Source: Mustelus asterias (Eukaryota). Taken from it: a stretch of DNA of 64,000 nucleotides. The DNA is taken from contig NW_027590182.1 in assembly GCF_964213995.1 (NCBI RefSeq), positions 310,001-374,000 on the forward strand, read 5' to 3'. The notes beneath the pieces were generated by a model that saw only the letters and a list, made by a program, of their open reading frames with translations, was not told the DNA's origin and did no database searches. Of this stretch, positions 8,700 to 61,500 are shown in pieces (within the stretch, counting starts at the first letter, position 1; each line of letters starts with the position of its first letter). The translations under genes were made by a program, and so were the position numbers.

Positions 8700-9160
8700 T
8701 GTAACCTTTCCAGAGTCTGCAGCCTCCCTGGATTCACTTCCTTTCCCTTCAGTTGCTGCAAGTCCCCAATTTCCCCCAGAATGAGAAAAGAAATGGAAAG
8801 GGGGAAATATTGATTTCCTCCCAGATGTTGGCCCAGAGGTTTCACTCTGAAGCTTGTTGGCCAACTTCCGCGTTGTGACGTCACAATGGAGCCCTGCCTG
8901 AAGCAGCCAATAGGAATCAATCTGCTCCACGGTGACGTCCTGATGTTCCAGTGCGCAGGCTCGGACGCTGTCGCCTCTCCACCCCCTCCCCCCGGATAGA
9001 GATCCATTGATGCCCCTCCTCCGAGGTCTGGCCAATCGGGAGCCCTGGCAGACCGGAAGGACTCTTGTACTCCAGCCAATCAGTGGGTGGGCTTTGTGAC
9101 ATAGGAGGTTGAGCTTCACACAGACTGAACCTTCTTCCTGTGTCCCACATCTGTGAGTAA
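8700..9160. promoter_or_regulatory. Candidate bidirectional promoter P1 (type 1) between ZF B (-) and ZF C (+)
   Basis: CpG-rich. TGACGTCA at 8876-8883; CCAAT at 8907, 9032 and 9076; donor GTGAGT at 9153. Homologous (inverted) to 56480-57340. Confidence 0.65.
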
Positions 9161-9497
9161 AACAGTTTGTTTGTGTTGCAGATAAAGAACAGGCAGGGTG
9201 TGAGAGGTTTTCAGGAGGGAAGGGAAGAGTTCAATGAACAGTGAAGCTGTGAGTGGGAGATGGGGAGGGAGTCTGAGCAGCTGGAAAAAGGAGAACAAAA
9301 AGGCTGATTGGGAGAATCTACCAGTGAGAGATCCAGAGGCTGTGACTCCTGGGGCTGCCTGTGGAAATGGGCTGTAGGGAAAGAGTCCAGTCCAACCTCC
9401 TGTAAAGGGAAAGGAGCTGAACCTATACCTGGGAAATTTAGAGAGTTGTGGGACTCTGTAACTAGAATTAGAGCCAAATATGTGGAGGGGGGAAATG

Positions 9498-10220
9498 TTT
9501 GATTTTATTTGATTTGATTTATTATTGTCACATGTATTAACATACATGTTTTTTGCACGTTATCCAGACAAAGCATACCGTTCATAGAGAAGGAAACAAG
9601 AGAGTGCAGAATGTAGTGTTACAGTTATAGCTAGGGTATAGAGAAAGATCAACTTCATGCAAGGTAGGTCCATTCAAAAGTCTGACAGCAGCAGGGACAA
9701 AGCTGTTCTTGTGTCAGTTGGTACGTGACCTCAGACTTTTGTATATTTTTCCCTATGGAAGAAGGTGGAAGAGAGAATGTCCGGGGTGCGTGGGGTTCTT
9801 AATTATGCTGGCTGCTTTGCCACGGCAGCGAGAAGTGTAATCAGAGTCATAGAAATCATAGAAACCCGACAGCACAGAAAGAGGCCATTCGGCCCATCGA
9901 GTCTGCACCGACCACAATCCCACCCAGGCCCTACCCCCATATCCCTACATATTTTACCCACTAATCCCTCTAATCTACGCATCCCAGGACACTAAGGGGC
10001 AATTTTAGCATGGCCAATCAACCTAACCCGCACATCTTTAGACTGTGGGAGGAAACCAGAGCACCCAGAGGAAACCCACGCAGACACGAGGAGAATGTGC
10101 AAACTCCACACAGACAGTGACCCAAGCCGGGAATCGAACCCAGGTCCCTGGAGCTGTGAAGCAGCAGTGCTAACCACTGTGCTACCGTGAGTCAATGGAT
10201 GGGAGGCTGGTTTGTGATGC
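9498..10220 (-). mobile_element. Rex1/Babar LINE 3' fragment with nested HE1-like SINE (about 9845-10187)
   Basis: (tttga)n tail at 9498-9520. Matches the reverse complement of 18250-18440 and 19275-19468. The nested SINE is nearly identical to 41086-41431. Confidence 0.8.
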
Positions 10221-11439
10221 TTGTAAATATTTGTAAACATTTGTAAATCTTTGTGATTTTGTGGAACCTGTTGTTATTGTCTGAACTATTTAAAGTCAAA
10301 TTTATCCTGTCTGTTCAAGTACCATTGTCTGTGAATGCATGCTTCATTTATGTTGATTTTAGTTTGGTTATTGCAGTAAAAGTATGAAGTTAATGAAACC
10401 TTATTCTTTGGTTTATTCCATTGGGATTGTCTGGGAAATTGTTTATTTGAAGATTATCAGTCTCTATGGAGATCATAACAGAGGTGTTTCTAGTTTTGTT
10501 ATTGTACATGTTAGATGTATTATTTTTGGTGCTGTAGTAAAGTATTTATTTTTTATTTCTATTCTTGGAATATAGTAATATAGTTGTGTTATACATTTCC
10601 AGTCAGTGAGACATTGCAGCACAAAAAGAGTCCATTTGGCAACTCGAGTCCATGTCAACTCTCCATAGAACAACCAGTGGGTCCCATTCCCCCTCTGTAT
10701 CACTGTCCTACAGGTTTATTTCTTTTGAATGACCAACATCATTTGAAATCATGGGTTCTCTCTGCTTCCACCATCCGCATGTGGGGTGAATTCCAGTTTA
10801 TGACCACTTGAAGTCCAAACAAACATTCAACACATATTCCCTACCTCTCTCTAATAAAGTAATATAGCACTTTTACACAAATGATAGTCCAGTTCTATAT
10901 GAATATAAGGGATATATTGGTGAACAGCTTGCCTGAAGATTGTCAGGTCTTTGTGTCCTGGAGCATGAACCAGCAGCTTCAGCAGAATCGGGAGGGTGAA
11001 GATTCGGTGCAGAATGTGTGGGACAGAAATTTACAACTTTTCAGGAATAAAAGAATAGAAAATAGTTTAATTGAATCGAGAATTGTCCATCCTGAATTTT
11101 TTTTCTATGTGTACGGTGTTGACTTTTGTAAACTTCTTTCACAGGATATTAGAAGGGGAGGATTTACAGGACAGAAATATCAAAACAAAACATTACGTTC
11201 AGATCTGACAGTCACTCGATTAATCACAACGTGAATATCATTGGCCTTTGACTCTAGAAGGAGAATTATTTGGGTTTGTTTCTGTCTGTGGGAAAAGATT
11301 GAACATTAGTGTGACTGGAAAAGCACTGAGAAGTACAAACCTGAGTGTGTGTTCAGGTTACACAGCCTGAAAAGCATTGCCCCATTTACATTGAGAGGGA
11401 GTGTACATCTGTTCTCAGTGAGGACGAGGCTTCAACTGA

Positions 11440-12633
11440 TTGTCAAACCTGGAGGGACAGACGGCCTCCCGCATCAGGGAGAAACAGTGGAAATGTGGGG
11501 ACTGCGGAAATAGATTCAAAGCACCGTGTGAGCTGGAGATTCATCGACGCAGTCACACTGGGGAGAAGCCATTCACCTGCCCTGATTGTGGGAAGGGATT
11601 CTCTCAGTTATCCAACCTGCTGACACATCAGAAAATTCACACTGGGGAGAGGCCATTCACCTGCTCTGAATGTGGGAAGGGTTTCGCTGATTCATCTCGT
11701 CTTCTGACACACGGACGCATTCACACGGGGGAGAGGCCTTTCACCTGCATTGAGTGTGGGAAGGGGTTCGGAGATTCATCCAGCCTCCGGAGACACAAGC
11801 GAGTTCACACTGGGGAGAGGTCATTCCCTTGCTCAGTGTGTGGGAAGGGATTCACTCTTTCATCCAACCTGCGGAGACACCAGCGAATACACGCCAGGGA
11901 GAAGCTGTTCAGCTGCTCAGAGTGTGGGAAGGGATTCAGTGATTCCTCTGCTCTGCAGAAGCACCAGAGAGTTCACACTGGGCAGAGGCCGTACACCTGC
12001 TCTGACTGTGGGAAGGGATTCACTCGGTCATCTCACCTGCTGATACATCAGCGAGTCCACACCGGGGAGAGGCCGTTCACCTGCACCGTGTGTGGGAAAG
12101 GATTCAGTGCATCATCTACCCTGCAGAACCACCAGGCAGTTCACACTGGGGAGAGGTCATTCACCTGCTCCGTGTGTGGGAAGGGATTCACTCAGTTATC
12201 AACCTTGCTGCGACACCAGGCAGTTCACACTGGAGAGAGGCCATTCCCCTGCTCTGTGTGTGGGAAGGGATTTACTAGGTCCACTAGTCTGCTGACACAC
12301 CAGCGAATTCACTCTGGAGAGAGACCGTTCAGTTGCACTGAGTGTGGGAAGGGATTCACTGATTCCTCCAGCCTCTGGAAACACCGGCAAGTTCACACCG
12401 GGGAGAGGCCATTCATCTGCTGTGTGTGTGGGAAGGGATTCACTGAGTCGTCCAGTCTGCGGACACACCGTCGAGTTCACACCGGAGAGAAGCCTTTCAC
12501 CTGCTCTGAATGTGGGAAGGGATTTGCTGATCCTTCCAGCCTGCGGAAACACAAGCAAGTTCACACGGAGGAGAGAGGCTGTTCACCTGCTCTGAGTGTA
12601 GGAAAGGATTCACTGAGTCATCCAACCTGCTGA
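11440..12633 (+). CDS. C2H2 zinc-finger ORF C, 13 intact fingers, lacking an in-frame ATG
   Basis: 13 C-x2-C...H-x3-H units. The family start ATG reads AGG (11476-11478). Frameshift after finger 13 (about 12570). Array cut by an LTR near 12687. Coding status uncertain. Confidence 0.65.
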
Positions 12634-12686
12634 GACATTATGGCAGTCACACCGATTAGAGACCTTTTAAATACTCTGCCTGTGGG

Positions 12687-13520
12687 CGTTAATTGTATAA
12701 TTTGGGGTTAAATATATACAAGCAGTGGACATTGATTAGATGTTTACATGAGCACATATAGACACTTACTGACAGAGCATGGAATGGTATTAGGAGTTAT
12801 ATACCAGTAATGTTTCACTCTGTGAATAAATCTATACCAAGTAAAGATTGGAACCAGTTTCCTCCTTCACCATAAGACGGTCAGGATTATAACGTGGTGA
12901 CAGAGAATGTTTAAAAATACATGAAGTTTCCAATCTGAATGTTTTAGAAGGAATAATGATAGCTTTGATAAAAATCAAAGGGAAAGATGCAAATTATCTT
13001 AAAACTACACAGACAATTTGTTCACACTTTTTGCCAAAGATTAAAAGTCTTGCTTCAAGATGCAGGAGCAGTTGATGAAGAGTATCTGAGACTCATACAA
13101 GAGACTAGTGCAAAGTGTACAATGTATAAAAATTATTGGAGGATGTCATCACATCCCAACAGTGAACCTTCCCTTGGCCCTTGGGGCTGGAGCTGTGGCA
13201 CCAGCTCAGTTTCTGAATGATGAGTTTTGAGACGTGTGTGAAAACATGAACATTCTGGTCAGGAACACGGCAGCTGAAAGCCCTTTCAGTGATGGACTCT
13301 GTGAAAGGAATCACACGGTGATCGATGAAATGCTGCAGGAAATCTCAGCTGATCAGCCAAACTGCAAGTTGATAGCTGCACCGGCCTGGACGATTCATGT
13401 AAAGAATTCACTTCAGGTGGTTGGAGAGTATAATCCCTGTTAATTGGTCTGTGGGAAAAATTCCAAATGACCCTCTGTGCTGGGGATAGTCCTCCTGATT
13501 TAGAAGGGATGACAATTAGT
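12687..13520 (+). mobile_element. Copia-type (GalEa-like) LTR retrotransposon remnant
   Basis: About 208-bp LTR-like segment 12687-12894 with aataaa. PBS-like tggtgacagagaatg at 12895 resembles the tRNA-iMet complement TGGTAGCAGAGGATG. Integrase remnants LKLHRQFVH and TAAESPFSDGLCERNHTVIDEML. Clade assignment is from recalled motifs. Confidence 0.65.
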
Positions 13521-14256
13521 ACAATTTTTATTCATTTATTGTCTGATTGTTTCACTGGTGCTCGAGCTAAGAAATTATTGTAGATCCTCGATGAGGGGTG
13601 TCTTATAGTGTAATACTTTGTACAAAATAAAGACCATCATGTTTTTATTTTTCAAATTGTTTTGAAATATTGTGTGTTGTTATAATTCGGGTCGAGAACA
13701 TTAACGTTCAGTGAGAAATCCAAACACCCATCACAAGATTCCAGGTTTTTAAACAAAATCAAACTTTACTGAATATAAACAGAATATTAAAAACCAGCTC
13801 GATGAATCATATTTTGTAAAGATTTATGCTGTAAACTCAGTTCTGACTCAAAACATGAACTCTGTTTTCACTCTCTACAGATGCTGCCAGACCTGCTGAG
13901 ATTTTGCAGCATTTTTCCTTTTTTGTACTTTTTAAACCCTTACTCCTCGACAAGAATGCCCTTATACTTAATATCTTGAATGTACATTCACTTCTGTTCC
14001 TGGGACAAATCCCAAAGGTATGTCAAAGCTCCCAGAATTAACTTTAATTCTCCTCAGTATTCCAGCTATTCTCCAGGCTCCAAGATTTCATGAGGATCCT
14101 TCTATTAGCTTTTGGCTAAACAACTCTCCAACTTTCCTTTGTGATTTCAAAATTGACTCAAAACATGGACTTCTCAATCCAAGCATGGGCTTTACTGCCT
14201 TCTTGCTGAGAGATTGATACAATAGGAACACCCATGGTTCCTAATGACCTCCTCGG

Positions 14257-14376
14257 CTCCCGGTCCCACAGCTGGTTCACAGCTCCCGCTCCCACAGCTG
14301 GTTCACAGCTCCCGCTCCCACAGCTGGTTCACAGCTCCCGCTCCCACAGCTGGTTCACAGCTCCCGGTCCCACAGC
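14257..14376. repeat. 26-bp minisatellite, about 4.6 copies
   Basis: Unit CTCCCG(C/G)TCCCACAGCTGGTTCACAG. Confidence 0.95.
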
Positions 14377-15589: not shown

Positions 15590-15970
15590 GAATTGAGAAC
15601 AGAAGCAGGGAATTTATTCTGATAGTTTCTAAAGCTCTGGTGAGGCCACAACAGAATACTGAGCCCAGTTCTGGTCACCACACTTTAGGAAGGATGTGAG
15701 GGTCCTTGAGAGAATCGAGAGGAGATTTACCCCACAATGGTTCCAGAGATGAGGAAGATGACGCGAATGTGGAACTTGCTACCAGTGAGTGGTTGAGGTG
15801 AACAGCATGAATACATTGAAGGGGAAGCTAGATACATAAATGAGGGAGAAAGGAATAGAAGGATATGCTGAGGGGGGGAGATGAAGAGGGGGGTGGGTGG
15901 AGGCTCATGTGGAGCATAAATACTGACACAGACCAATTGGGCCGACTGGCCTGGCCCTGTGCTGTAGACT
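15590..15970 (+). mobile_element. CR1 LINE 3' fragments
   Basis: ctggtgaggccaca...cagttctggtcaccacactttaggaaggatgtg (LVRPH..QFWSPH..KDV) and a 3' UTR remnant. Confidence 0.7.
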
Positions 15971-16210
15971 CACTGGAACAGAGACAAATGTATTTATTTT
16001 AGATTTACCTCGTGTTTGTGGATCATCTCACTAAAATGTGCACTCCCAAATTCAAACAGCATCGACCCACTGGCAGCAAAGCCATGAGGTTGGTCAGTCC
16101 AGCAGAAAGAAACCCTCCAACCCTCTCACTTCAGCAACTGTCAGAATGAACATGGTTCAGTCCTGGATGTGATCAACAGCAGCAAGAACAGCAGAATCCA
16201 ACTCCTGTAA

Positions 16211-17040
16211 TCACTTGTGAATTCGCTGGTGTCTTAGCAGGTGAGACGACCGTTTAAATCTATTCCCACAGTCAGAGCAGCTGAACGGCCTCTCCCCAGT
16301 GTGAACTCGCTGGTGTGTGAGCAGATTGGAGATCTGAGTAAATCCCTTCCCACAGTCAGAGCAGGTGAAGGGTGTCTCCCCAGTGTGAACTCGCTGGTGT
16401 GCCAGCAGGGTGGAGGAATGACTGAAACCCTTCCCGCACACAGGGTGACTCCCCAGTGTGAACTCGCTGGTGTATTAGCAGTTGGGATGATGTTCTAAAT
16501 CTCTTCACGCAGTAAGAGCAGCTGAACGGTCTGTCCTCAGTGTGAATGCGCTGGTGGCCCATCAGAGTCTGAGAGCTTTTGAAGCTACGCTCACAGTCAG
16601 AGCATTTAAATGGTCTCTCATTCGTGTGGGTGACACGGTGTGTCTGCAGGGTGGATGAATGACTGAATCCCTTCCCACACACACAGCAGGTGAACGGCCT
16701 CTCCCCAGAGTGAACTCGCTGGTGCCTCCACAGGGTGGAACGATCACTGAATCCTTTCCCACAGTCTGAGCAGGCGAAAGGTCTCTCCCCGGTATGAACT
16801 CGCTGGTGCGTCAGCAGGCTGGATAACTGAGTGAATCCTTTCTCACACACAGAGCAGGTGAACGGCCTCTCCCCAGAGTGAACTCGCTGGTGTCTCAGCA
16901 GGGTGGTTGATATACTGAATCCCTTCCTACACACGGAGCAGGTGAACGGCCTCTCCCCAGTATGAATTCGCCAGTGTGTCCAGTGCAGATGGGCACTGGA
17001 ATCCCTTCCCACAGTCCCCACACTTCCATGGTGTCTCCAT
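16211..17040 (-). pseudogene. C2H2 zinc-finger pseudogene D (about 10 fingers, two frameshifts)
   Basis: ATG of [10 protein letters not shown] at 17040. Frameshift near 16975 and a deletion/frameshift near 16445 split it into ORFs 16356..17093 and 16211..16441. Confidence 0.85.
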
Positions 17041-19479: not shown

Positions 19480-20215
19480 TTTCCTTCCTGAAGCCACATT
19501 TGTCCACTGGGGCCTGGCCCCGGGAGAAAGCGCTGCAGCTGCCGTTGTGTTGGGTGTAGAGGCGGTGCCGCTAGTTCCTTATTGGGGGTGTTGAAGCCTC
19601 CACTGGGTGTGTGGAGCCTCCCCTCCCACCCACCCACTGCCCCTAACGCTGCCTCCGCTTATCCGCCTCCTTCCCGCCTGAAGATCAGACAAACAAGCGC
19701 CTGTTCCTGGACATGAGCCGCACTGCGCATGCCCAACGTCACAATGCCCGGGGACTGATTGACGGCGGCTCCGGGCCAATAGGGAAAGGGGGCGGGGCTG
19801 GAGGACTGAGCGGGAGAGGCTGGTCCTCCAACCAGAGTGAATAGGGGAGGGGTCTGAAGCATGCGCAGTGTGGGTAATGGCGGCGGACGGACGGTTTTAA
19901 CTTGGAGCCGAGATCAGTTCAAGGTAGAGAACGGCGCGCAGGGAGCGATGAATGTGGTGGGTGGGTGGAGAGGCTTCGTAAACATGTTGTTCAAATCCAA
20001 ACTTCGGAAAATAACTTCTCGGGCGTCCTGTTGGTACCAAATTGGAGGCAACTTGTCGTGTTGGGCCTGGGCTGACGGCCGCCAATCTGTCGTTGGCAAT
20101 GTCCATCAGTGCGCATGTGCGGCCGGCATCTTTGTCAGGGGCGAAGTGTCGCAGCGGGCAGGCGCGGAAGCCATATTTGTAGGGGGCAGTAGGGCGCAGG
20201 AGCGGCGACCTTTGT
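19480..20215. promoter_or_regulatory. Candidate bidirectional promoter P2 (type 2) between ZF D (-) and ZF E (+)
   Basis: CpG island-like. NRF1-like TGCGCATGC at about 19724 and 19859, YY1-like AATGGCGGC at about 19876, CCAAT at 19776, GC box at about 19789. Inverted homolog at 61070-61500. Confidence 0.7.
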
Positions 20216-24474: not shown

Positions 24475-25230
24475 ATGGAAGGAAAAAGCACCGTTCAGAG
24501 TGGGGAGAAACCATACACCTGTTCTGTGTGTGGACGAGGCTTCAGTCGATCCTCAGGCTTGTCGCAACATAAATGTCTTCACACTTGGAAGGAGTCATTT
24601 TGTTCCCCATCTGAGCTGGAAATCCATCAACGCACTAACGCTGAGAAACCTTTCACTTGCTCCGAGTGTGGGAAGGGATTCAGTGATTTATCCAGCCTGC
24701 TGAGACACCGGCGAGTTCACACTGGGGAGAGGCCATTCAGCTGTACTGTGTGTGGGAAAGGATTCAATGATTTATCCAACCTGTTGAAGCACCAGCGAGT
24801 TCACGCTTTGGAGAAACCATTCACCTGCCCCAAGTGTGGGAAAGGATTCACTGATTCATCCAACATGTTGAGACATCAGCGAGTTCACGCAGACAAGAGA
24901 CCATTTAAATGTCAGGAGTGTGGGAAGGGCTTTAAAGGTTCTGAGGATCTGATGTGCCATCAGCGAGTTCACTCTGACGAGAGACCTTTCCAATGTCTGG
25001 ACTGTGGGAAGTGTTATAAAAGACGCTGGGATCTGATTTGCCATCAGCGAGTTCACTCTGACGAGATACCGTTCAGGTGCTCCAGCTGTGGGGCTGGGTT
25101 CAGGCAGTCATCTGAACTCACTGTACACCAGCGCACTCACACCAAGAAAAGACCATTCACCTGCTCCGAATGTGGAAAGGGATTCACTCGGTCATCCTAC
25201 CTGCTGAGACACCAGCAACTTCATGTGTAA
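24475..25230 (+). CDS. C2H2 zinc-finger protein E, 8 intact fingers plus 1 deleted finger
   Basis: aacATGg at 24475 ([16 protein letters not shown]...), TAA at 25228-25230. The frame is also open upstream through a likely acceptor near 24365. Confidence 0.85.
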
Positions 25231-31116: not shown

Positions 31117-31367
<251 letters not shown>

Positions 31368-31814
31368 GGTGTCGGTGTCATCATGTCACTCCAGGTTGAT
31401 GATCAGTTGAAGCCTCGTCCACACACACAACATGTGTACAGCTTCTCCCCTCTGTGAACAATGTGATGTTTTTTCAGGCTGTGTAACTGTTTAAAGCTCT
31501 TTCCACAGTCAGTTCACTGGAACACTCTCACTCGGGTGTGTGTGTGTCTCGGTGATTTTCCAATCCCATTGATTTATGAAATCTTTTCCCACAGACAGAA
31601 CAGATAAACATTTTTCCTTCCACATTCAAAGACCAATGATATTCAGCTCCTGATGAATCGAGTGACTCTCAGATTTTGACATGATGTTTGTTCTGACTTT
31701 TCTGTCTGGAACTCCTCTCACTCTCACCCCCTGTAAAAGGAGTTTACAGAAGTTATCAGTGTAAATAGAGGACAGAAATTCAGAGCAGACAATTCTAGTT
31801 TCTGTGGAAGCTTT

Positions 31815-33419: not shown

Positions 33420-33545
33420 CTGGTTGGCTGGAGAGCCGAGAGGGAGCAGCTGGAGGACCAAGCGGGAGCGGCTGGTCCTCCAACCAACTAGAGTGAATGA
33501 GGGGCGGGCTGGAGGACCGAGAGGGAGCGGAGTGCCCCCTCCAGT
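33420..33545. promoter_or_regulatory. Partial type-2 promoter module P3, upstream of pseudogene F
   Basis: ctggaggaccaagcgggagcggctggtcctccaacca..agagtgaatgaggggcggg matches 19798-19850 and the reverse complement of 61316-61374. Confidence 0.55.
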
Positions 33546-37883: not shown

Positions 37884-38850
37884 TCTCATCAACATATAAT
37901 AATCCCTGAAATATTAGCTATTACCTGTCTCCTATTATACCTTTTGATGCAGTTTCCCAATCCATCTCAGATACAGGATCTCATATATTAGTTTTCTTCT
38001 GTGAGAAACATCCCGATAAATTAAACAAAAGAACCATATAAGTACCACAGCCCATCTCCATGGCAATGTCACATACTTCAGTGGGGTTCCAAACAGAATT
38101 ACGAATGAAATATCTTTGAACTGACAAACGTGCTTCACTCTTGTGATCCTTGTGAAATTTGAAGACAAGAAATGTGCTCTCCCAGGCTCAAAGATCATCA
38201 GCCCACTGGAGGCAAAGCCGTGAGTCCGGCCAGTCCAGCAGAAAGAAACCCTCTGACTCTCCCCGTTGACCAACTGAGAGAATGAACAAAATGCAGTCCT
38301 GGACATAAGTGAGAGCAGAAACAATAACAGCAGAATCCAAACCCTGGAATCACTTGTGAACTCGCTGGTGTCTCAGCAGATGGAATGAGTAAGCAATTCC
38401 ATTCCCACGTTGAGAGCAGGTGAACGACCCCTACTCTGTGTGAACTCGCCAGTGTTTCTGCAGGGAGGATGAATCACTGAATATCTTCCCACATTGAGAG
38501 CAGGTGAACGGTTTCTCTCCAGTGTGGATTTGCTGGTGTGTCTGCAGTTTGAAAAGCCAAGAGAAGACCTTCCCACAGTGAGAGCAGGTGAATGGTCTCT
38601 CCCCAGTGTGGATTCGCTGGTGTATCTGCAGGTTGGATAACTGACTGAATCCCTTCCCACATTGAAAGCAGGTGAATGGCCTCTCCCCAGTGTGAATGCG
38701 CTGGTGTATTTGCAGAGCGGATGAATCACTGAATCCCTTCCCACACTGAGAGCAGGTGAATGGCCTCTCCCCAGTGTGAACCCGCTGATGTCTCAATAGA
38801 TTGGCTGACATGGTGAATCCCTTCCCACACACGGAGCAGGTGAATGGCCT

Positions 38851-39864
38851 CTACCCAGTGTGAACTCTCTGGTGTGTCAGCAGCTGGGATGAGAGAGGGA
38901 ATCTCTTCCCACACTGGGAGCAGATAAATGGCTTCTGCCCAGTATGAACTTGCTGGTGTCTCTGCAGGGTTGATGGATCAGTGAATCCCTTCCCACACAC
39001 AGAGCAGGTGAACGGCCTCTCCCCGCTGTGAACTCGTCGGTGTCTCCGCAGATGGGATGAATCACTGAACCGCTTCCCACATTGAGGGCAGGTGAATGGC
39101 CTCTCCCCAGTGTGAACTCGCTGGTGTACCCGCAGGTGGGATGAATAACTGAATCCCTTTCCACACTGAGAGCAGGTGAACGGTTTCTCCCCGGTGTGAA
39201 CTCGCTGGTGTATCAGCAGGGAGGATGACTGAGTGAATCCCTCCCCACACTGAGAGCAGGTGAACGGTTTTTCCCCGGTGTGAACTTGCTGGTGTATCCG
39301 CAGGTGGGATGACTGAGTGAATCCCTCCCCACACTGAGAGCAGGTGAACGGTTTTTCCCCGGTGTGAACTTGCTGGTGTATCCGCAGGTGGGATGACTGA
39401 GTGAATCCCTCCCCACACTGAGAACAGGTGAACGGTTTCTCCCCGGTGTGAACTCGCTTGTGGGACTGTAGGAAGGATAGCCGAGTGAATCCCTCCCCAC
39501 ACTCAGCGCACGTGAATGGCCTCTCTCCAGTGTGAACTCGCTGGTGTGTCTGCAGGTGGGATGACTGAGTGAATCCCTTCCCACACTGAGAGCAGATGAA
39601 TGGTCTCTCTCCAGTGTGAACTCTCTTGTGGCACTGTAGGAAGGATAGCCGAGTGAATCCCTTCCCACACTGAGAGCAGGTGAATGGCCTCTCTCCAGTG
39701 TGAACTCGCTGGTGTGTCAGCAGGTGGGATGACTGAGTGGATCCCTTCCCACACTGAGAGCAGGTGAATGGCTTCTCCCCAGTGTGAATGCGCTGATGGA
39801 TTTCCAGTTGTGACGAAAACCTGAATTCCTTCCCACAGTCCCCACATTTCCATGGTTTCTCCAT
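38851..39864 (-). CDS. C2H2 zinc-finger protein G, 12 fingers before a premature TAG
   Basis: accATGg MEKPWKC...HTG*. The same frame continues past the TAG with 5 intact fingers, a second TAG (38433-38431) and a degenerate finger to a TGA at 38352-38350. Confidence 0.85.
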
Positions 39865-41431: not shown

Positions 41432-41704
41432 AAGTTAAAGGGCCAGTCATTTAAAACTGAGGTGCGGAGAAATTTCTTCTCGCTGAGGGTGGTGAATCTC
41501 TGGAATTCTCTGCTCCAAAGGATGGTAGAGGCTGAATCATTAGAAATATTTAAAATGGAGGTGGATAAATATTTGATAGATTGAGGAATAGAGGGCGATG
41601 GGGAAATGGCTCACAAAAGGAGGCCGGCATCGATCAGCCAGGATTGTTCTGAATGGCAGGGTCGCTTGAAGGGCCTGGTGGCCTCTCCTGCTTCTATTTC
41701 TTGT

Positions 41705-42530
41705 GATCAGTTGCTGCAAGTCCCCAATTTCCCCCAGAATGAGAAAAGAAATGGAAAGGGGGAGAAAAGAAAGTGTTTTACTCACAGATGTTGGCCTCTT
41801 TTAAGGTCAAACCAAATAAACAAACAGGAGGAAGTTTCAGTCAGTCTGAAGCGCAATCTTCTTTCACACAAAGCCCGTCCTGTGATTGGCTGGAGGACCA
41901 GAGTCCTTCCGGTCCTCCAATTCTTCCCATTGGTCAACACCTCAGCGTGAAGGTCAGGGGGCGGGCTCTCCCCTGCACATGCGCAGTTTCCCCTCTCCCT
42001 CAGGGCCGGGTGCCTGGAAACCTTGGCTCGAGGAGGTGCCGGGGGAGGGGGGTACAAAGGGTGGGGTCGGGGCTCCCATGTCCGGGCGTCCGGGCCTGCG
42101 CACTGGGATCCAAGGATGTTGGCGCGGAGCAGAGTGATTGCTGTTGGATTGAGTCGTCACAATGACTCAGAGGGGCGTTCCCAGCACGCAGTGTCCCATT
42201 GGCAGCAATATCACTGGTTACAGAAGCAGCACACTGCGGATTGGACACCAGCTCAGCGCGGCTGGCGGTCAAAGCCCCGCCCACCCCCACGTGGGCTCGG
42301 GTTCCGCCCCTTATTGTCTACATGCGGCAGATTGACCAATGGCAATGCGTGGAGGACCGGATCAGCCCTGGTCCTCCAGCCAGTCAGAGTCCGGGCCTTG
42401 TGTCAATGGCTGCACGAATGTTCCTCCATTGTTTGTCCAACAAACTGCTGCTCATCCTCCTCCTCTCTCTGAACAAAGATTGAGCTTCAGATAGATTCAA
42501 TCTTCCTCCTGTCTCCAACCTCTGTGAGTG
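41705..42530. promoter_or_regulatory. Candidate bidirectional promoter P4 (type 1) upstream of ZF G (-)
   Basis: Outward-facing donors GTGAGT at 41785-41780 (-) and 42524 (+). Several CCAAT/ATTGG boxes, GCACATGCGCA at 41975, GC boxes. Homologous to 56540-57060. Confidence 0.68.
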
Positions 42531-42534
42531 GGAA

Positions 42535-43780
42535 AGATTGGATTGTCCAGCCAGTCCACCATATTGGCCGTTCGCTTTGCGTGTTGGCCAGTATGGTGTG
42601 CTCCAGGCAGGGGGCGGGCAGAGGATAAGGAGTTCAAGGCGGGCTTAATGCGCGCCTTGCGGTGAGCTTTTGGAAATGTGGCCGCTGGGAGGAACGCCTT
42701 GGTCGGCGTGAAGTTTCTGTTCCAAGTGCTTGGGTTCGTGACTTGTGCAAGAACTTTTTGTTTCGGCTGGGGCTTGTTGAATGCTGCTCTCGCTGGGATT
42801 CCTGTGCCTTGAAAGGCGTGGCCCGGGTGGATGCAGTCTCGGAGGGCCCAAGCCAGGGAGGAGCCATTTGGGAACTATGGTTTCGGAAGGTTCAGCCGCG
42901 GAGGGTGTGACCCCAGACGGTGCAGCCCCAGTGAGTGTGATTTTGGAAGATCTGGCCCGGAGTGGTGGACTTTGGAGGACTGTAGTTGAGCGTTGTCGAC
43001 TTCGGACGGTGGAATGTTGATGGGCGAAGCTCTGGAAGGCGATGCCTCCGAAATGTTTCACAATTGTATGGTTGTTCATGGATTGTTTGTTATTGTAATA
43101 TGTGGTTTTCCTGTTATGATAGTTGGTGGTTTGTTCCGGCCCCCGTCTATTTTCTTGCGTTATTTGTGGCCTGGGGGGCATCCCCCCCCTGGATAAAGTC
43201 ACCCCCGGGGGGTGTGACATCCACTTGGGGAAAGTTCTGGGTGGTGAAGCCCCGGACATAGTAACACCAGAGGGATTTTTATTCTCCGGGAGAAAAATTG
43301 GGAAGGCAGGCCCGAACTGAGTACCCTGGAGAGACTCTCCCACCGCCCCGGCTGAAATTCCGGAAGGGATTCCGGATTGAGTAGGCGGGGTGGTTTCCCC
43401 CATTTCCCCCCTCCGGCTGAACATCCGTAAGGTGTAACCCCCGGATGTGAGTACCACTGGAGGGTTGCATCCCCCGGCAGGTGGACAAACCCAGGGGACG
43501 GTGCCCTTATGCTTCAGTGTTTATTTTTTTTGTTGTGTACAGTTGTAGTGTTGTGTTAATGTTTGTAGATTTGTAGATTATGATTTGTAAATGGAGGTGT
43601 ATTTTGAGGGCAATGCCCTGGAAAACTGTAATTGACGATGAACCCTTCCGAAATGGAAGGTAGTAACTGATAAATGGATGGCGTTTAGCCATTGGTAATG
43701 TATTTTTTTCACATTTGTTCTTTGTGTATTTGTAATTGTTTTGTATTAACGTATTTGTAATAAACAAAAAGAAACCAACA
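42535..43780 (+). other. Unassigned G+T-skewed insert, possibly the 3' end of an L1/Tx1-clade retrotransposon
   Basis: CpG-retaining G/T-rich segment, a short-repeat-rich middle, and a T-rich end with aataaa plus an A-rich run at about 43759-43774. No diagnostic protein motif recognised. Confidence 0.3.
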
Positions 43781-43888: not shown

Positions 43889-43959
43889 GCATTGGTGGTT
43901 CAGTGGTAGAATTCTTGCCTGTCATGCGGGAGGCCTGGGTTCGATTCCCGAACAAGGCA
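43889..43959 (+). tRNA. tRNA-Gly(GCC)-derived gene with GTC anticodon; probably a pseudogene
   Basis: GCATTGGTGGTTCAGTGGTAGAATTCTTGCCT-GTC-ATGCGGGAGGCCTGGGTTCGATTCCCGAACAAGGCA is collinear with vertebrate tRNA-Gly-GCC. A and B boxes intact, two acceptor-stem mismatches, T4 at 43970-43973. Confidence 0.85.
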
Positions 43960-44774: not shown

Positions 44775-45521
44775 ATGGAGAAACCGTGGAAATGTGGGGA
44801 CTGTGGGAAGAGATACAGAGCCCCCTGTGACCTGGAAATTCATCGACGTATTCACACTGGGGAGAGGCCATTCATCTGCTCTGTGTGTGGGCAGAGATTC
44901 ACTCGGTTATATCATCTGCAGCGACATCGGCTGGTTCACACTGGAGAAAGAGCGTTCATGTGCTTTGAGTGTGGGAACGGATTCGCTCATTTACCCGATC
45001 TGCAGAAACACCAGCGCGTTCACACTGGAGAGAGACCATTCATCTGCTTGGTGTGTGGGAAAGGATTTATGCAGTTATCCAATCTGTCAAAACACAAAGT
45101 CACTCACAGCAATGAGAGACCCTTTAAATGCTCTGACTGTGGGCGTGATTTCAAAAGCTCTCGGGAACTGATGATTCACCAGCGCATTCACACTGGGGAG
45201 AGACCATTCAGCTGCTCTCACTGCTCAAAGAGATTTAGAACATCATCCCACCTGCGGATACACCAGCGAATTCACACTGGGGAGAGACCGTTCACCTGCT
45301 CTGTGTGTGGGAAGGGATTCACTCAGTCATCCAGCCTGCTGAACCACAATCTCACTCACACCAATGAGAGACCCTTTAAATGTTCTGACTGTGGAAGTGG
45401 TTTCAAAAGCTCTCGGGAACTGATGATTCACCAGCGCATTCACACTGAGGAGAGACCGTTCAGCTGCTCTCACTGCACAAAGAGATTTAGAACATCATCC
45501 CACCTGCGGCAACACCAGTGA
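44775..45521 (+). CDS. C2H2 zinc-finger protein H, 8 complete fingers, 9th cut by CGA>TGA
   Basis: atcATGg MEKPWKC... The frame continues after the TGA to an ancestral stop at 45615-45617. Acceptor near 44416, donor at 43996. Confidence 0.82.
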   Translation: MEKPWKCGDCGKRYRAPCDLEIHRRIHTGERPFICSVCGQRFTRLYHLQRHRLVHTGERAFMCFECGNGFAHLPDLQKHQRVHTGERPFICLVCGKGFMQLSNLSKHKVTHSNERPFKCSDCGRDFKSSRELMIHQRIHTGERPFSCSHCSKRFRTSSHLRIHQRIHTGERPFTCSVCGKGFTQSSSLLNHNLTHTNERPFKCSDCGSGFKSSRELMIHQRIHTEERPFSCSHCTKRFRTSSHLRQHQ

Positions 45522-45614
<93 letters not shown>

Positions 45615-53762: not shown

Positions 53763-53998
53763 GACTAAATATCTCTAAACTTCCTGACACCCTGTCACTC
53801 TGTGATCCTTATGACATTTGAAACCAGCTATTCGCAAAAAGACTCAAAGAGCATCAGGCCACTGGAGGCTGAGACCAGCCAGTCCAGCACAAAGAAACCC
53901 TCTGACCCTTCCCATTGACCAACTGTGAGAATGAACAAAATGCAGTCCTGGAGGCAACTGAGAGCAGAAACAATAACAGCAGAATCCAACCCCTGTCA

Positions 53999-56023
53999 TC
54001 ACTCATGAACTTGCTGGTGTCTCAGCAGCTCGGATGAAACTCTGAATCCCTTCCCACATACAGAGCAGGTGAACGGCCTCTCCCCAGTGTGAACTCGCTG
54101 GTGTCTCTGCAGGTCGGCTGACTGAGTGAATTCTTGCCCACACTGAGAGCAGGTGAACGGCGTCTCCCCTGTGTGAACTCGCTTGTGTGTTTGCAGGTTG
54201 GATAGCTGAGTGAATCCCTTCCCACACACACAGCAGGTAAACGGCCTCTCCCCAGTGTGAACTCGCTGGTGTGTCCGCAGGCTGGATAACTGAGTGAATC
54301 CCTGCCCACACTGAGAGCAGATGAATGGCCTCTCTCCAGTGTGAACTCGCTGGTGTGCCCGCAGGTCGGATGACCGAGTGAATCCCTTCCCACACTGACA
54401 GCAGGTGAACGGCCTCTCCCCAGTGTGAACTCGCTGGTGTGACCGCAGGCTGGATAACTGAGTGAATCCGTTTCCACACTGAGAGCAGGTGAATGGCCTC
54501 TCCCCAGTGTGAACTCGCTGGTGTGTCTGCAGATTGGATGACCGAGTGAATCCCTTCCCACACTGAGAGCAGGTGAATGGGGATTTCTCCCCAGTGTGAA
54601 CTCGCTGGTGTGTCTGCAGGTGGGATGACAGAGTGAATCCCTTTCTACACTGAGAGCAGGTGAACGGTCTCTCCCCAGTGTGAACTCGCTGGTGTGTCTG
54701 CAGATTGGATGGCCGAGTGAATCCCTTCCCACACTGAGAGCAGGTGAATGGGGGTGTCTCCCCAGTGTGAACTCGCTGGTGTGCCTGCAGGTCGGATGAC
54801 CGAGTGAATCCCTTCCCACACTGAGAGCAGGTGAACGGCCTCTCCCCAGTGTGAACTCGCTGGTGTGTCTGCAGGTTGGATAACTGAGTAAATCCCTTCC
54901 CACACTGAGAGCAGGTGAATGGCCTCTCCCCAGTGTGAACTCGCTGGTGTGCCCGCAGGTTGGATACCTGAGTGAATCCCTTCCCACACTGAGAGCAGGT
55001 GAATGGCCTCTCCCCAGTGTGAACTCGCTGGTGTCTCTGGAGGCTGGATAACTGAATGAATCCCTTCCCACACTGAGAGCAGGTAAATGGCCTCTCCCCA
55101 GTGTGAACTCGCTGGTGTTTCTGCAGGGTGGATGACTGAGTGAATCCCTCCCCACACTGAGAGCAGGTGAATGGTCTCTCCCCAGTGTGAACTCGCTGGT
55201 GTGTCCGCAGGCTGGATAAATGAGTGAATCCCTTCCCACATTGAGAGCAGGTGAATGGCCTCTCCCCAGTGTGAACTCGCTGGTGTGTCTGCAGGTGGGA
55301 TAACTGAGTAAATCCCTTCCCACATTGAGAGCAGGTGAATGGTCTCTCCCCGGTGTGAACTCGCTGGTGTGTCAGCAGGCTGGATGACTGAGTGAATCCC
55401 TTCCCACACTGCGAGCAGGTGAATGGCCTCTCTCCAGTGTGAACTCGCTGGTGTGTCTGCAGGTGGGATGACTGAGTGAATCCCTTCCCACACTGCGAGC
55501 AGGTGAATGGCCTCTCTCCAGTATGAACTCGCTGGTGCGTCTGCAGGTGGGATGACTGAGTGAATCCCTTCCCACACTGCGAGCAGGTGAATGGCCTCTC
55601 TCCAGTGTGAACTCGCTGGTGTGACTGCAGGCTGGATAAATGAGTGAATTCCTTCCCACACTGAGAGCAGGTGAACGGCCTCTCTCCAGTGTGAACTCGC
55701 TGGTGTATCTGCAGGCTGGATAACCGAGTGAATCCCTTCCCACACTGAGAGCAGGTAAATGGCCTCTCTCCAGTGTGAACTCGCTGGTGTGTCTGCAGGT
55801 GAGATGACTGAGTGAATCCCTCCCCACACTGAGAGCAGGTGAATGGCCTCTCTCCAGTGTGAACTCGCTGGTGTCTCTGCAGGCTGGAAACCTGACTGAA
55901 TCCCTTCCCACACGGAGAGCAGATGAACGGCCTCTCTCCAGTGTGGCTGCGCCGATGAGTTTCCAGCTCTGATGGGGTTCCGTATCCCTTCCAACAGTCC
56001 GCACATTTCCATGGTTTCTCCAT
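53999..56023 (-). CDS. C2H2 zinc-finger protein I, 24 uninterrupted fingers
   Basis: accATGg at 56023 ([10 protein letters not shown]...HQQVHE*). Near-identical 84-bp repeats. Acceptor near 56375. Confidence 0.92.
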
Positions 56024-56479
56024 GGTGCAGGTGTCCTTACCTCTCTCTTGAGTGGACAATTAGTTGAAACTTCATCCACACACAGAACAAGATTACAGTC
56101 TCTACCTGCTGTGAATGGTGTGATATTTATTCAGACTGTGTAACTGGTTAAAGCTCTTTAGTCAGTGCATTGGAACACTCTCACTCGAGTGTGGCAGTGT
56201 GTTGATGCATTTTCACTCACACTGACATTTCAAATCTTTTCAAATCGACAGACTGGACAATCATTTCTCCTTCTGGATTCAAAGTCCGATGATATTGAGG
56301 TCCCAAGGAATATGACTCTGTCAGATCGAGACGTGGCGTTTGAGATTTCAGCCTGTGATTCCTCTTTCAATGTCCTGTAAAATGAGTTTACAAAAGTCAT
56401 CAGTGTCAGTACAGGATAGAAATTCAGAACAGACAATTTCATTGGAACATTCTTTCCTCTCTCATTCCCCAAAAGCTGA

Positions 56480-57338
56480 AAAGAGAGAGAGACCTGGGCC
56501 AACCTTTCCAGAGTCTGCACCTTCCCTGGATTCACTTCCTTTCCCTTCAGTTGCTGCAAGTCCCTAATTTCCCCAGAATGAGAAAAGAAATGGAAAGGGG
56601 GTTGAAAAGAAAGTGTTTCACTCACAAATGTTGGCCTCTTTTAAGGGTAGGAAGTTTGAGTCTGTCTGAAGATCAATCTTCATTCACACAAAGTCCACGC
56701 TCTGATTAGCTGGAAGACCGGAGTCCTTCCGGTCCTCCAACTCTTCCCATTGGTCAACACCTCAGCATGAAGATCAGAGGGTGGGTTCTCCCCCGCACAT
56801 GCGCAGCTTCCCCTCTCCCTCGCACATGCGCAGTCCCGGGCCGGGGGGAGGGGGAGCTCACCGAGCGGCTTCTCGCTCTGGCCAGGGCCGTCAGCCGGTG
56901 CCTGGAAACCTTGGCTCGATGTGGTGTTGGGGGAGGGGAACAATGGGTGGGGGCGGGGCTCCCGGGTCCGCGCGCCCGGGCCTGCGCACTGGAACCCGGA
57001 GACATCACCGCGGAGCAGAGTGATTCCTATTGGCTGATTCAGGGAGGACTCTATCGTGGCGTCACAATGCGCAAGTTGTCCAATGAGCTTCAGAGTGAAA
57101 CTTCCTCCTCTGGGCAACATCTGGGAGGAAATCAATGTTTCCCCCTTTCCATTTCTTTTCTCATTCTGGGGGAAATTGGGGACTTGCAGCAACTGTAGGG
57201 AATGAAGTGAATTTGGTCTGTATATTCCACACATTTTTACTCCAGTAATGTAGACATTTATCTGTCTGGCAGCCTGCATGGAGATTTTCAGCTCTCTGCG
57301 TCCAGGACAGGAAGCAGTGAGCATGGATCTGTCAATCA
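56480..57338. promoter_or_regulatory. Candidate bidirectional promoter P5 (type 1) upstream of ZF I (-)
   Basis: CpG-rich. Two GCACATGCGCA, GC boxes, CCAAT/ATTGG. Donor at 56625-56620 (-). About 100-bp inverted end blocks. Confidence 0.7.
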
Positions 57339-57725
57339 CACATGAGGACGGCCTCAACCAGGATCTTGGGTTCATGTCACACTATCTGTAACCCCCACGA
57401 CTTGCCTGGGCTTGCAAAATCTCACCCACTGTCCTGGCTGGAGACAATACACATCACTTTAACCTGTGCTTAACCCTCTCTCCACTCACATTGTCTGTGC
57501 CTTTAAGACTCGATTACCTGTAAATTCGCATTCGAACCATTATCTTGTAAATTGAGTTTGTGTCTTTATATGCCCTGTTTGTGAACAGAACTCCCACTCA
57601 CCTGATGAAGGGGCAGCGCTCCGAAAGCCTGTGGCTTATGCTACTAAATTAACCTGTTGGATTTTAACCTGGTGTTGTGAGATTACTTACTGTGCTTACC
57701 CCAGTCCAACGCCGGCATCTCCACA
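57337..57725 (+). mobile_element. Penelope-like family A 3' end (GIY-YIG tail plus 3' UTR)
   Basis: THEDGLNQDLGFMSHYL*, then a UTR ending ...ccagtccaacgccggcatctccaca. Confidence 0.85.
57599..57633 (+). ncRNA. Minimal hammerhead ribozyme motif (family A), U16.1>C
   Basis: CAC-CTGATGA-A-GGGGC-agc-GCTCC-GAA-AGCC-T-GTG, in sense orientation to the PLE ORF. Confidence 0.68.
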
Positions 57726-58154
57726 CTCTGAGTGGAAACAGAGACAAGGAGGAGAGGCCGGAGGTGAGGAGAGAGATTTTATACATCTACAACTCAACAG
57801 GAACTTTGACAGAATTTCCAAACCCTGTGAACACCATCAGCTCCAAGTTCCTCTCCAACCCACACACCATCCTGACTTGTCTGACATCCAGTACTGAAAG
57901 AACAGAAATTTATTTCATTTAAATACTGGGAAGACTGAACCCATTGTGTTCAGTCCCCACTACAAACTCCACTCCCTCGCCAACAACTTTATCTCTCCTC
58001 CTGGCAACTGTCTGAGGCTGAACCAGGCTGTTCACAACCAGGATGAAATAGTGCATCCCAACATGAGCTTCCAGCCACATGTCACATCATCATCAAGACC
58101 ACTTTCATTCATAGAAGCATTAATAGTAATTAATTAATAATAATGAATAATAAA

Positions 58155-58452
58155 GTACAGTGTAGAAGGAGGCCATTCAGCCCATCGAGCCTGCACCGAC
58201 AACAATCCCATCCAGGCCCTATCCACATATTTACCTGTTAATCCCCCTGATACCAAGTGGCAATTTATCATGGCCAATCCGTCTAACCGGCACATCTTTG
58301 GACTGTGGAAGGAAACCGGAACACCCGGAGGAAACCCACACAGACACAGAGAGAATGTAGAAACTCTGCACAGACAGCGACCCGAGGCTGGAATTGAACC
58401 CGGGTCCCTGGCGCTGTTAGGCAGCTGCACTAACCACTGTGCCACCGGGCCA
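58155..58452 (-). mobile_element. HE1-like V-SINE within an L2 remnant (about 57915-58625)
   Basis: V-domain and head on the - strand. The flanks resemble the L2 at 26070-26350. Confidence 0.85.
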
Positions 58453-58506
58453 CATGTCAGTGCCATCGCCCGACTCCAGCCCAGTCTCAGCTCATCTGGA
58501 ACCCTC

Positions 58507-58581
58507 ACCCATTCCATTGTGACGTCACACTCTGACCCATTCCATTGTGACGTCACACTCCCACCCATTCCATTGTGACGT
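58507..58581. repeat. 28-bp tandem repeat, about 2.7 copies, containing TGACGTCA
   Basis: Unit ACCCATTCCATTGTGACGTCACACTC(TG/CC). Confidence 0.9.
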
Positions 58582-58621
58582 TATGGCTTCACTCTCCGAT
58601 CACAATCCCTGCCGGCCTCCC

Positions 58622-61062
58622 ACATAAGAACATAAGAAATAGGAGCAGGAGTAGGCCATCTAGCCCCTCGAGCCTGCCCCGCCATTCAATAAGATCATGG
58701 CTGATCTGACGTGGATCAGTACCACTTACCCGCCTGATCCCCATAACCCTTAATTCCCTTACCGATCAGGAATCCATCCATCCGCGCTTTAAACATATTC
58801 AGCGAGGTAGCCTCCACCACCTCAGTGGGCAGAGAATTCCAGAGATTCACCACCCTCTGGGAGAAGAAGTTCCTCCTCAACTCTGTCTTAAACCGACCCC
58901 CCTTTATTTTGAGGCTGTGTCCTCTAGTTTTAACTTCCTTACTAAGTGTAAAGAATCTCTCCGCCTCCACCCTATCCAGCCCCCGCATTATCTTATAAGT
59001 CTCCATAAGATCCCCCCTCATCCTTCTAAACTCCAACGAGTACAAACCCAATCTCCTCAGCCTCTCCTCATAATCCAAACCCCTCATCTCCGGTATCAAC
59101 CTGGTGAACCTTCTCTGCACTCCCTCCAATGCCAATATATCCTTCCTCATATAAGGGGACCAATACTGCACACAGTATTCCAGCTGCGGCCTCACCAATG
59201 CCCTGTACAGGTGCATCAAGACATCCCTGCTTTTATATTCTATCCCCTTCGCAATATAGGCCAACATCCCATTTGCCTTCTTGATCACCTGTTGTACCTG
59301 CAGACTGGGCTTTTGCGTCTCATGCACAAGGACCCCCAGGTCCCTTTGCACGGTAGCATGTTTTAATTTGTTTCCATTAAGATAGTAATCCCATTTGTTA
59401 TTATTTCCTCCAAAGTGTATAACCTCGCATTTCTCAACGTTATACTCCATTTGCCATATCCTCGCCCACTCACTCAGCCTGTCCAAATCTCTCTGCAGAT
59501 CTTCTCCGTCCTCCACACGATTCACTTTTCCACTTATCTTTGTGTCGTCTGCAAACTTCGTTACCCTACACTCCGTCCCCTCCTCCAGATCATCTATATA
59601 AATGGTAAATAGTTGCGGCCCGAGTACCGATCCCTGCGGCACGCCACTAGTTACCTTCCTCCAACCGGAAAAACACCCATTTATTCCGACTCTTTGCTTC
59701 CTGTCGGATAGCCAGTCCCCAATCCACTTTAACACACTACCCCCAACTCCGTGTGCCCTAATCTTCTTCAGTAGCCTTTTATGGGGCACCTTATCAAACG
59801 CCTTTTGGAAATCCAAAAACACCGCATCCACCGGTTCTCCTCCATCAACCGCCCTAGTCACATCTTCATAAAAATCCAACATGTTCGTCAAGCACGACTT
59901 TCCCCTCATGAATCCATGCTGCGTCTGATTGATCGAACCATTTCTATCCAGATGCCCTGCTATCTCCTCTTTAATAATGGATTCCAGCATTTTCCCTACT
60001 ACAGACGTTAAGCTGACCGGCCTATAGTTACCCGCCTTTTGTCTCCTTCCTTTTTTAAACAGCGGCGTAACATTAGCCGTTTTCCAATCAACCGGCACTA
60101 CCCCAGAATGCAACGAGTTTTGATAAATAATCACTAACGCATCCACTATTACCTCTGACATTTCTTTCAATACCCTGGGATGCATTCCATCCGGACCCGG
60201 GGACTTGTCCACCTTCAGTCCCATTAGTCTACCCAGCACTGCCTCTCTGGTTACATTAATTGTATTAAGTATTTCTCCTGCTGCCAACCCTCTATCGTTA
60301 ATATTTGGCAAACTATTTGTGTCCTCCACCGTGAAGACCGACACAAAAAACTTATTTAAAGACTCAGCCATATCCTCATTTCCCACTATTAACTCCCCCT
60401 TCTCGTCCTCCAAGGGTCCAACATTCACTCTAGCCACTCTATTCCTTTTTATATATTTATAAAAACTTTTACTATCATTTTTTATATTAATTGCTAGCCT
60501 AGCTTCATAGTCTATCCTTCCTTTCTTTATCGCTTTCTTAGTCTCTCTTTGTTGTTTCTTAAATTTTTCCCAATCACTTGTTTCTCCACTATTTTTGGCC
60601 ACTCTGTACGCAGCTGTTTTTATTTTAATACTCTCCTTTATTTCCTTCGTTATCCACGGCTGGTTCTCCCTTTTCTTACAATCCTTGTTTTTTGCTGGAA
60701 TATATTTTTGCTGAGAACTGAAAAGGATCTCCTTAAAAATCCTCCACTGTTCCTCAGCTATCCTACCTGCCAGCCTGCTCTCCCAGTCTACCTTAGCCAA
60801 TTCATCCCTCATCCTATCATATTTCCCTCTGTTCAAACAGAGGACACTGGTTTGGGACCAAACTTTCTCCTCTTCCATCTGAATCAGAAATTCGACCATA
60901 TTGTGGTCACTAGACCCAAGAGGGTCCTTCACAATAAGATCCTTAATTCTACCTACCTCGTTACACAATACCAGATCCAAAATAGCTCGTTCCCTCGTCG
61001 GTTCCGTAACATGCTGTTCAAGGAAACTATCCCGACAGCATTCTAAGAACTCTTCCTCCATT
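58622..61062 (-). mobile_element. Young CR1 LINE, 5'-truncated, uninterrupted ORF2 segment (EN C-terminus, RT, C-terminus)
   Basis: ORF 58716..61061 of 781 aa: ILDLVLCN, SSDHNMV, NYRPVSLTS, GVPQGSVLGP, KFADDTK. Tail (TTCTTATG)2. CACAT at both junctions (58621-58625, 61063-61067). Confidence 0.97.
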
Positions 61063-61069
61063 CACATGC

Positions 61070-61500
61070 AGCCTCAATGGCGGCAGTCAGCCCGGGTCTA
61101 ACACTACAAGCTGCCGCTCCATTTGGTACAAAGGGGGGGACCGGGAAGTTCATTTCCGGGGTTTGGGTTTGAACAACATGTTTACAAAGCCTCTCCACCC
61201 ACCCGCCACATTTATCATTCCCCGCGCGCCGCCCTCTACCTCGTATTGATCTCGCTTCCGAGTTAAAACCATCCGTCTGTCCGTCGCCATTACCCGCACT
61301 GCGCATGCTTCAGGTCCCGCCCCTCATTCACTCTGATTGGTTGGAGGACCAGCCGCTCCCGCTCAGTCCTCCAGCCCCGGCCCCTTTTCCTATTGGTCCG
61401 GAGCTGCCGTCAATCAGCCCCTGGGCATTGTGATGTGGAGCATGCGCAGTGTCATTGCTGTCCTTGGCGCTTGTTTGTCCCGGAGAAGCGGAGTCAGCGT
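61070..61500. promoter_or_regulatory. Candidate bidirectional promoter P6 (type 2)
   Basis: Inverted homolog of 19720-20085. CGCCATT, two TGCGCATGC, two ATTGG, GC box. Confidence 0.68.

Follow-up and report, generated by a model that had tools for sequence, protein, structure and literature searches.

An inverted repeat that is probably part of a shared promoter core of C2H2 zinc-finger genes in the shark Mustelus asterias

The stretch of DNA analyzed here (the window, 64,000 nucleotides) belongs to the 3.68-Gb genome of Mustelus asterias (assembly GCF_964213995.1, contig NW_027590182.1; G000:C150:310001-374000) and carries nine C2H2 zinc-finger (ZF) arrays, three of them confirmed by Pfam, amid fragments of long interspersed nuclear elements (LINEs). 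Promoter-like modules among these arrays share one inverted repeat, named below by the first position of each copy. A preliminary description had placed seven copies in the window, and all were found where it had put them, five being exact (19799, 33451, 41891, 42350 and 61342), with one mismatch in the copy at 56711 and three in that at 9046. No exact copy arose across 30 order-2 Markov simulations of the window, compared with the five observed. A module lies within 5 kb upstream of eight of the nine arrays (Table 1). The exception is the array at 952-1518, whose exon is interrupted and which lacks a module; a GC-rich, CpG-rich insertion at 1600-2900 separates this ZF exon from its 5' part near 2900-3060.

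In oriented alignments the core reads CCAAT, linker, TGGAGGACC, spacer, GGTCCTCCA and RCCAATC, the arms (TGGAGGACC/GGTCCTCCA) being 9 bp long with weaker symmetry out to about 12. The repeat had been described as usually adjoining a CCAAT box, and this is true of the upstream side, where a co-oriented exact CCAAT is present in six of the seven window copies, but directly 3' of the right arm an exact box stands in only three, the other four having a variant or a deletion at that position. Two types of module can be told apart. In type 1 the CCAAT boxes are separated by 44 bp in 46 of 53 modules and by 43 bp in another 4, and a donor-like site follows 60-79 bp downstream in 27 of 73 modules; in type 2 the distance is 56-59 bp in 86 of 89 modules, GC boxes flank both sides, and the motifs GCATGCGC and AATGGCG are present, which are NRF1-like and YY1-like, respectively. 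The spacer has a clear consensus within each type that differs between types. The whole core can be aligned between the two type consensuses, which agree at 18 of 18 arm bases and differ in a GC-box insertion and in the sequence and length of linker and spacer. Judged by this alignment, both types descend from one ancestral promoter core, and part of the recurrence of the motif is thereby explained without any function. Eight listed modules of a type 1b (6 distinct cores) have perfect 8-bp arms around five different spacers. Near 5357 of locus L081, an apparent short local inversion stands in place of the left arm of a type 1 module, and a partial U2 small nuclear RNA match (Rfam, L011:1601-1697) starts about 70 bp after another type 1 module.

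A genome-wide scan, as the preliminary description had proposed, returned 2,011 exact copies with spacers of 13-16 nt and 5 for the reversed control, degenerate copies standing outside these counts. The spacer length is bimodal, with 1,260 copies at 16 nt, 681 at 13 nt and 70 at 14-15 nt. When spacers of 2-32 nt were allowed, 2,076 exact copies were found (52 for the control), 1,941 of which have a spacer of 13 or 16, and the roughly 65 copies with lengths beyond 13-16 are near background. The exact copies are concentrated on C12, C16, C19, C23, C71, C75 and many small contigs, so that the element, first thought to be specific to one cluster, is instead family-wide and present on several chromosomes. 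The counts may include uncollapsed haplotypes, because the same variants recur on C71 and C87-C107. A metagenome scan gave one match, with different flanks and no module, which was taken as chance.

The placement of the modules relative to ZF genes was followed over seven tiled blocks. A module lies no more than 6 kb upstream in 54 of 83 C2H2 arrays and no more than 6 kb downstream in 13 of 84; arrays on the forward side of a module point away from it in 36 of 39 cases. On the back side, arrays are divergent from the module in 14 of 16 cases for type 1 and in 10 of 19 for type 2, which shows no bias. The idea that the motif marks every ZF promoter holds as an enrichment 5' of arrays and fails as a universal rule, since 29 of the 83 tiled arrays lack a module in the 6 kb upstream, and the array at 952-1518 has none either. 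Neither is the motif confined to such promoters, as had been the first impression, since it is also present away from ZF arrays. On C68, a satellite (L097-L098, G000:C68:178000-194500) repeats the 59-bp type 2 core in more than 100 units interrupted by LINEs, each unit holding a GC box, the inverted repeat with a 15-nt spacer and a CCAAT. The C28-C67 family (L179-L195, L248-L250) consists of multi-kb duplications, 94-100% identical, in which tandem GCCATCT repeats and a donor-like site come after a type 2 module, with a two-base left-arm change in part of its members; no finger or ZF array was found in 30 kb of C43, a contig of this family, and the gene driven there was not located. Tandem duplications of 60 bp are frequent in type 2 cores (33451-33543 in the window, L089, L092, L135, L136 and L143) and probably arose through slippage from one flanking GC box to the other.

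Table 1. Promoter modules and C2H2 arrays of the window (positions count from its first nucleotide)
Feature	Position	Strand	Details
Type 1 core	9032..9080	+	CCAAT 9032-9036, degenerate inverted repeat 9046-9074 (3 mismatches), CCAAT 9076-9080
9046 module, donor-like GTGAGT	9153-9158	+	
Type 2 core	19776..19882	+	CCAAT 19776-19780, GC box 19790-19796, inverted repeat 19799-19830
19799 module, 3' part		+	Second CCAAT gone through a short deletion; GCATGCGC (NRF1-like) 19859-19866; AATGGCG (YY1-like) 19876-19882
Truncated type 2 core	33451..33543	+	Inverted repeat 33451-33482; no upstream CCAAT
Decayed tandem half-copy	33510-33543		From a 60-bp tandem duplication of the 33451 core
Type 1 core	41780..41933	-	CCAAT 41929-41933, inverted repeat 41891-41919, CCAAT 41885-41889
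41891 module, leader and donor-like GTGAGT	41780-41785	-	
Type 1b core	42336..42529	+	CCAAT 42336-42340, inverted repeat 42350-42378, CCAGT variant
42350 module, leader and donor GTGAGT	42524-42529	+	Back to back with the 41891 module
Type 1 core	56620..56753	-	CCAAT 56749-56753, inverted repeat 56711-56739, CTAAT variant
56711 module, donor-like GTGAGT	56620-56625	-	One change in the CCAAT-adjacent arm of the module
Type 2 core	61285..61447	-	NRF1-like 61440-61447, CCAAT 61392-61396, inverted repeat 61342-61373, CCAAT 61336-61340
61342 module, 3' part		-	GC box 61316-61322, NRF1-like 61301-61308, AATGGCG 61285-61291
C2H2 array, 7 fingers	5976..6542	-	Back side of the 9046 module, points away
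C2H2 array, 14 fingers	11494..12650	+	Downstream of the 9046 module; Pfam-confirmed
C2H2 array, 8 fingers	16217..16940	-	Back side of the 19799 module
C2H2 array, 8 fingers	24520..25224	+	Downstream of the 19799 module
Decayed C2H2 array, 3 fingers called	31119..31602	-	Back side of the 33451 module
C2H2 array, 17 fingers	38440..39846	-	Downstream of the 41891 module
C2H2 array, 9 fingers	44793..45527	+	Downstream of the 42350 module; Pfam-confirmed
C2H2 array, 24 fingers	54005..56005	-	Downstream of the 56711 module; Pfam-confirmed

Two further features neighbor these modules: a tRNA-like match (Rfam, 43889-43959), possibly the head of a short interspersed nuclear element, lies between the 42350 module and its ZF array, and an open LINE reverse-transcriptase frame of 781 aa (RVT_1, 58716-61061) starts about 220 bp 3' of the 61342 module, in the same orientation.

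For the analysis of conservation, modules were collected over 1.67 Mb by profile models with arms and spacer masked; the profile seeds were exact copies, so that strongly diverged modules can escape. Perfect 8-bp arms were found in 89 of the 167 modules collected in this way, and at most two mismatches in the 16 arm positions in 159. Identical rows were collapsed before counting, and the counts exclude the loci selected by exact arms (L001-026, L099-108, L121-126), together with the satellite and the metagenome locus, and also one module with a large deletion (parsimony and divergence-ratio tests) and the C28-C67 family (close-paralog and divergence-ratio tests). At non-CpG sites the arms diverge less than the spacers, the arm/spacer ratio being 0.55 in type 1 (bootstrap 0.36-0.86; 67 distinct cores) and 0.53 in type 2 (0.31-0.88; 62 distinct cores), in bootstraps that count related paralogs as independent. 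The type 1 left arm, which lies away from any CCAAT box, stands at 0.42 of spacer divergence (0.22-0.72), and the type 2 right arm alone at 0.26. Parsimony gave 2.9 and 3.6 changes per non-CpG site in the type 1 arms and 5.7 in the spacer (p 0.003); in type 2 it gave 1.1 for the right arm, 3.4 for the left arm and 3.3 for the spacer (arms pooled, p 0.09). The C68 satellite served as a control: in 78 distinct units the arms (0.13 and 0.10), the spacer (0.125) and the CCAAT (0.10) all diverged alike, and because satellite arms diverge like the satellite spacer, the arms are not intrinsically protected. The constraint on the arms is thus moderate; it shows best in comparisons between subfamilies and, in type 2, on the arm next to the CCAAT. 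The earlier picture of fixed arms around a changing spacer is borne out between subfamilies; inside each type the spacer follows its own consensus and is only about twice as variable as the arms.

Contigs from four sequencing runs were aligned over 41700-42600. None of these runs is on record as RNA, though some of the contigs were guessed to be RNA, and contigs give neither start sites nor strand. The segment 41883-41946, from CCAAT to CCAAT, aligns in contigs of two other organisms, and many of these contigs have loose ends at 41883. Of the 40 listed substitutions (there are 65 further differences), none falls in the arms of either copy, and three are in the spacer of the 42350 copy. Contigs of all four runs cease to align at 42517-42524, adjoining the donor at 42524, a break that is consistent with splicing. 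A leader piece of about 35 bp (41791-41825) recurs in other sequence contexts among the contigs.

Taken together, these results point to an ancestral core, CCAAT-linker-TGGAGGACC-spacer-GGTCCTCCA-RCCAATC, that would have been copied about 2,000 times, largely together with C2H2 ZF genes. We think it somewhat probable that the motif represents two inverted half-sites, with a core of GGAGGA/TCCTCC, which a putative DNA-binding protein would contact as double-stranded DNA beside NF-Y, itself the likely occupant of the CCAAT boxes. The arm next to the CCAAT would be the main site and the other arm an auxiliary one. Each arm would serve as an independent monomer site, and the pair would not form one rigid dimer site, because spacers of 13 and 16 nt place the arms about 100 degrees apart around the helix and because uncompensated one-arm variants have spread and constraint is unequal. 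A palindromic site for a rigid homodimer was rejected, as the two spacer lengths differ by 3 nt and the type 2 arms are unequally constrained (0.016 and 0.051). A cis element that is under constraint and specific to the family, sitting in promoter modules of ZF genes, much as had been proposed, is backed by the upstream placement of the modules and by the lower divergence of the arms.

A number of results weigh against this reading, in addition to the dependence among paralogs mentioned with the bootstraps. The type 2 left arm, at 0.82 of non-CpG spacer divergence (0.46-1.38), is not distinguishable from the spacer; conservation of both 8-bp arms had been claimed at the outset, but in type 2 a clear constraint is seen only on the arm next to the CCAAT. 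Close paralogs show no significant arm constraint relative to distal flanks: in type 1, changes were found at 4 of 134 arm positions and 413 of 7,162 in distal flanks (p 0.25, 8 pairs), and in type 2 the arms were higher than the flanks (11 of 265 and 292 of 9,905; p 0.27, 16 pairs), in few pairs and with flanks that include coding and recently copied DNA. The type 2 spacer (14 of 153) outpaces the flank, and part of the contrast between arms and spacer may therefore reflect a fast spacer. The comparison of arms with nearby sequence, named in the preliminary description as one that could overturn its claim, gave a divided answer, favorable against spacers and not against the flanks of close paralogs. 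In 3 contigs of one other organism, an arm has lost 2 bases from its outer end. The motif is also covered by contigs that were guessed to be RNA, and one contig of 474 nt runs over 42123-42521 and leaves the alignment at the donor, so that the motif may be transcribed and need not lie upstream of the start site.

Some of these results would fit an inherited passenger, a relic of a founder promoter spread by duplication and gene conversion, in which the symmetry would have no function and only CCAAT-adjacent bases would matter, for instance as extended NF-Y contacts. The derivation of both types from one core, the behavior of close paralogs and of the type 2 left arm, the two-base left-arm variant of the C28-C67 family and one uncompensated right-arm change common, by eye, to about half of 100 listed type 1 modules would all be expected of such a relic. 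Against it stand the type 1 left arm, which is constrained without touching a CCAAT, the identity of both arms across types despite diverged spacers and linkers, and the satellite control, in which the arm/spacer contrast is absent. We regard the passenger explanation as possible, though on the unlikely side.

Selection on the stem itself, of 9-12 bp, as an RNA hairpin in the 5' leader or a DNA cruciform was among the roles first suggested for the repeat. Six of the seven window copies fold stably as RNA (-18.5 to -21.4 kcal/mol), which any repeat of this kind would do, and the fold is more stable on the module strand; the contigs guessed to be RNA span the motif, and the commonest variants are by eye compatible with G-U pairing on that strand. 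However, no compensatory double changes were found in 611 and 772 pair cells, with 73 and 56 one-sided changes, a comparison of low power at this divergence, and covariation is thus absent. Independent non-CpG transitions gave 22 G-U and 24 A-C pairs on the module strand, with no G-U bias, and 46 non-CpG transversion events broke arm pairs. The large type 1 subfamily with an uncompensated right-arm change points the same way, the arm sequence itself is fixed across types beyond what pairing demands, and Rfam gave no match at any window copy at gathering thresholds. What the copies conserve is sequence, most strongly a core of about GGAGGA/TCCTCC, and not pairing; a hairpin or cruciform is improbable. 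A recombination site, invertible switch or miniature transposon end, which the TG...CA termini of the unit and the tandem amplification of its 59-60 bp core might bring to mind, is highly improbable, since no copy of either type with the spacer inverted relative to CCAAT was found genome-wide by exact degenerate patterns (196 type 1 and 593 type 2 flank-anchored modules being the comparison set), no target-site duplication was seen by eye in 54 aligned copies, whose flanks are constant CCAAT and GC boxes, and the amplification would follow from the repetition of GC boxes on either side of the type 2 core.

Autoregulation, with one of the ZF proteins binding the repeat, had been put forward at the outset and would call for family members with fingers that read GGA GGA or TGG AGG. 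Among 161 finger runs (1,229 fingers) sampled over about 1.7 Mb and judged by the zinc-finger recognition code, two adjacent Q-H-R/K fingers occurred in none and two adjacent R-H fingers in 4, and no convincing self-binding ZF protein was found in this sample. It is doubtful that one dedicated cis element, read by one master factor that may itself belong to the family, runs the roughly 2,000 KRAB-less ZF genes of sharks.

NF-Y, SP, NRF1 and YY1 sites are features of CpG-island promoters and of bidirectional housekeeping promoters in vertebrates, with which the modules share GC boxes, GCATGCGC, AATGGCG and a nearby donor. Type 1, with its divergent ZF array on the back side, resembles a bidirectional promoter, whereas type 2 lacks such a bias. 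The palindrome is not known to be one of the standard motifs of such promoters. In the available part of the work on human double-CCAAT NF-Y modules, these fall into distance classes of 19, 26/36 and 43 bp, with the partner factors of the 43-bp class unknown (PMC4889920). They are alike in having two CCAAT boxes at a fixed distance with sites in between; type 1 is one base off the 43-bp class and type 2 is outside all classes. The human modules, as far as that part goes, carry E-boxes and GC boxes between the CCAATs and not this palindrome, and NF-Y binding in the shark is what we infer. The znf/FZNF genes of zebrafish chromosome 4 are likewise a large, fast-evolving clustered C2H2 family whose members share a few promoter architectures, and in the sections available to us their promoter classes are defined by a TATA box and the shape of the start site (10.1101/2021.08.09.455629, 10.1101/2022.11.29.518450). 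The word CCAAT is absent from the accessible text of the former (10.1101/2021.08.09.455629), whereas both shark types have CCAAT boxes and the palindrome. A motif given for ZNF263 in the portion seen of a HOMER table, CVGTSCTCCC (PMC7946360), matches by eye the left arm with its CpG at 9 of 10 positions and the right arm at 8 of 10. The ZNF263 consensus ends in C, where the shark motif has an A that is well kept in the right arm. This similarity, seen at the level of sequence, is a resemblance only. ZNF263 is a SCAN-KRAB protein and would not be expected in sharks. The open-access literature searched held no description of the motif or of shark or elasmobranch ZF promoters, the arm sequence matching only a primer, and these promoters do not come up in the available part of PMC8455134; the novelty could yet be altered by motif tables given in supplements. 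The promoter element is real and family-wide, undescribed in that literature, and its mechanism is probably ordinary.

Little is known of how large and fast-evolving ZF families are switched on jointly, and the few cases described so far depend on general types of core promoter. A 9-bp half-site present in about 2,000 promoters, and in two ancient promoter types, offers a precise bait for the factor involved. If a single master factor did control these genes, it would provide family-wide feedback control of a putative transposon-defence repertoire. If the motif is an inherited passenger only, the case would be one of ordinary promoter paralogy, yet a useful marker all the same, as the motif provides a sequence tag for first-exon annotation of this ZF family in cartilaginous fish.

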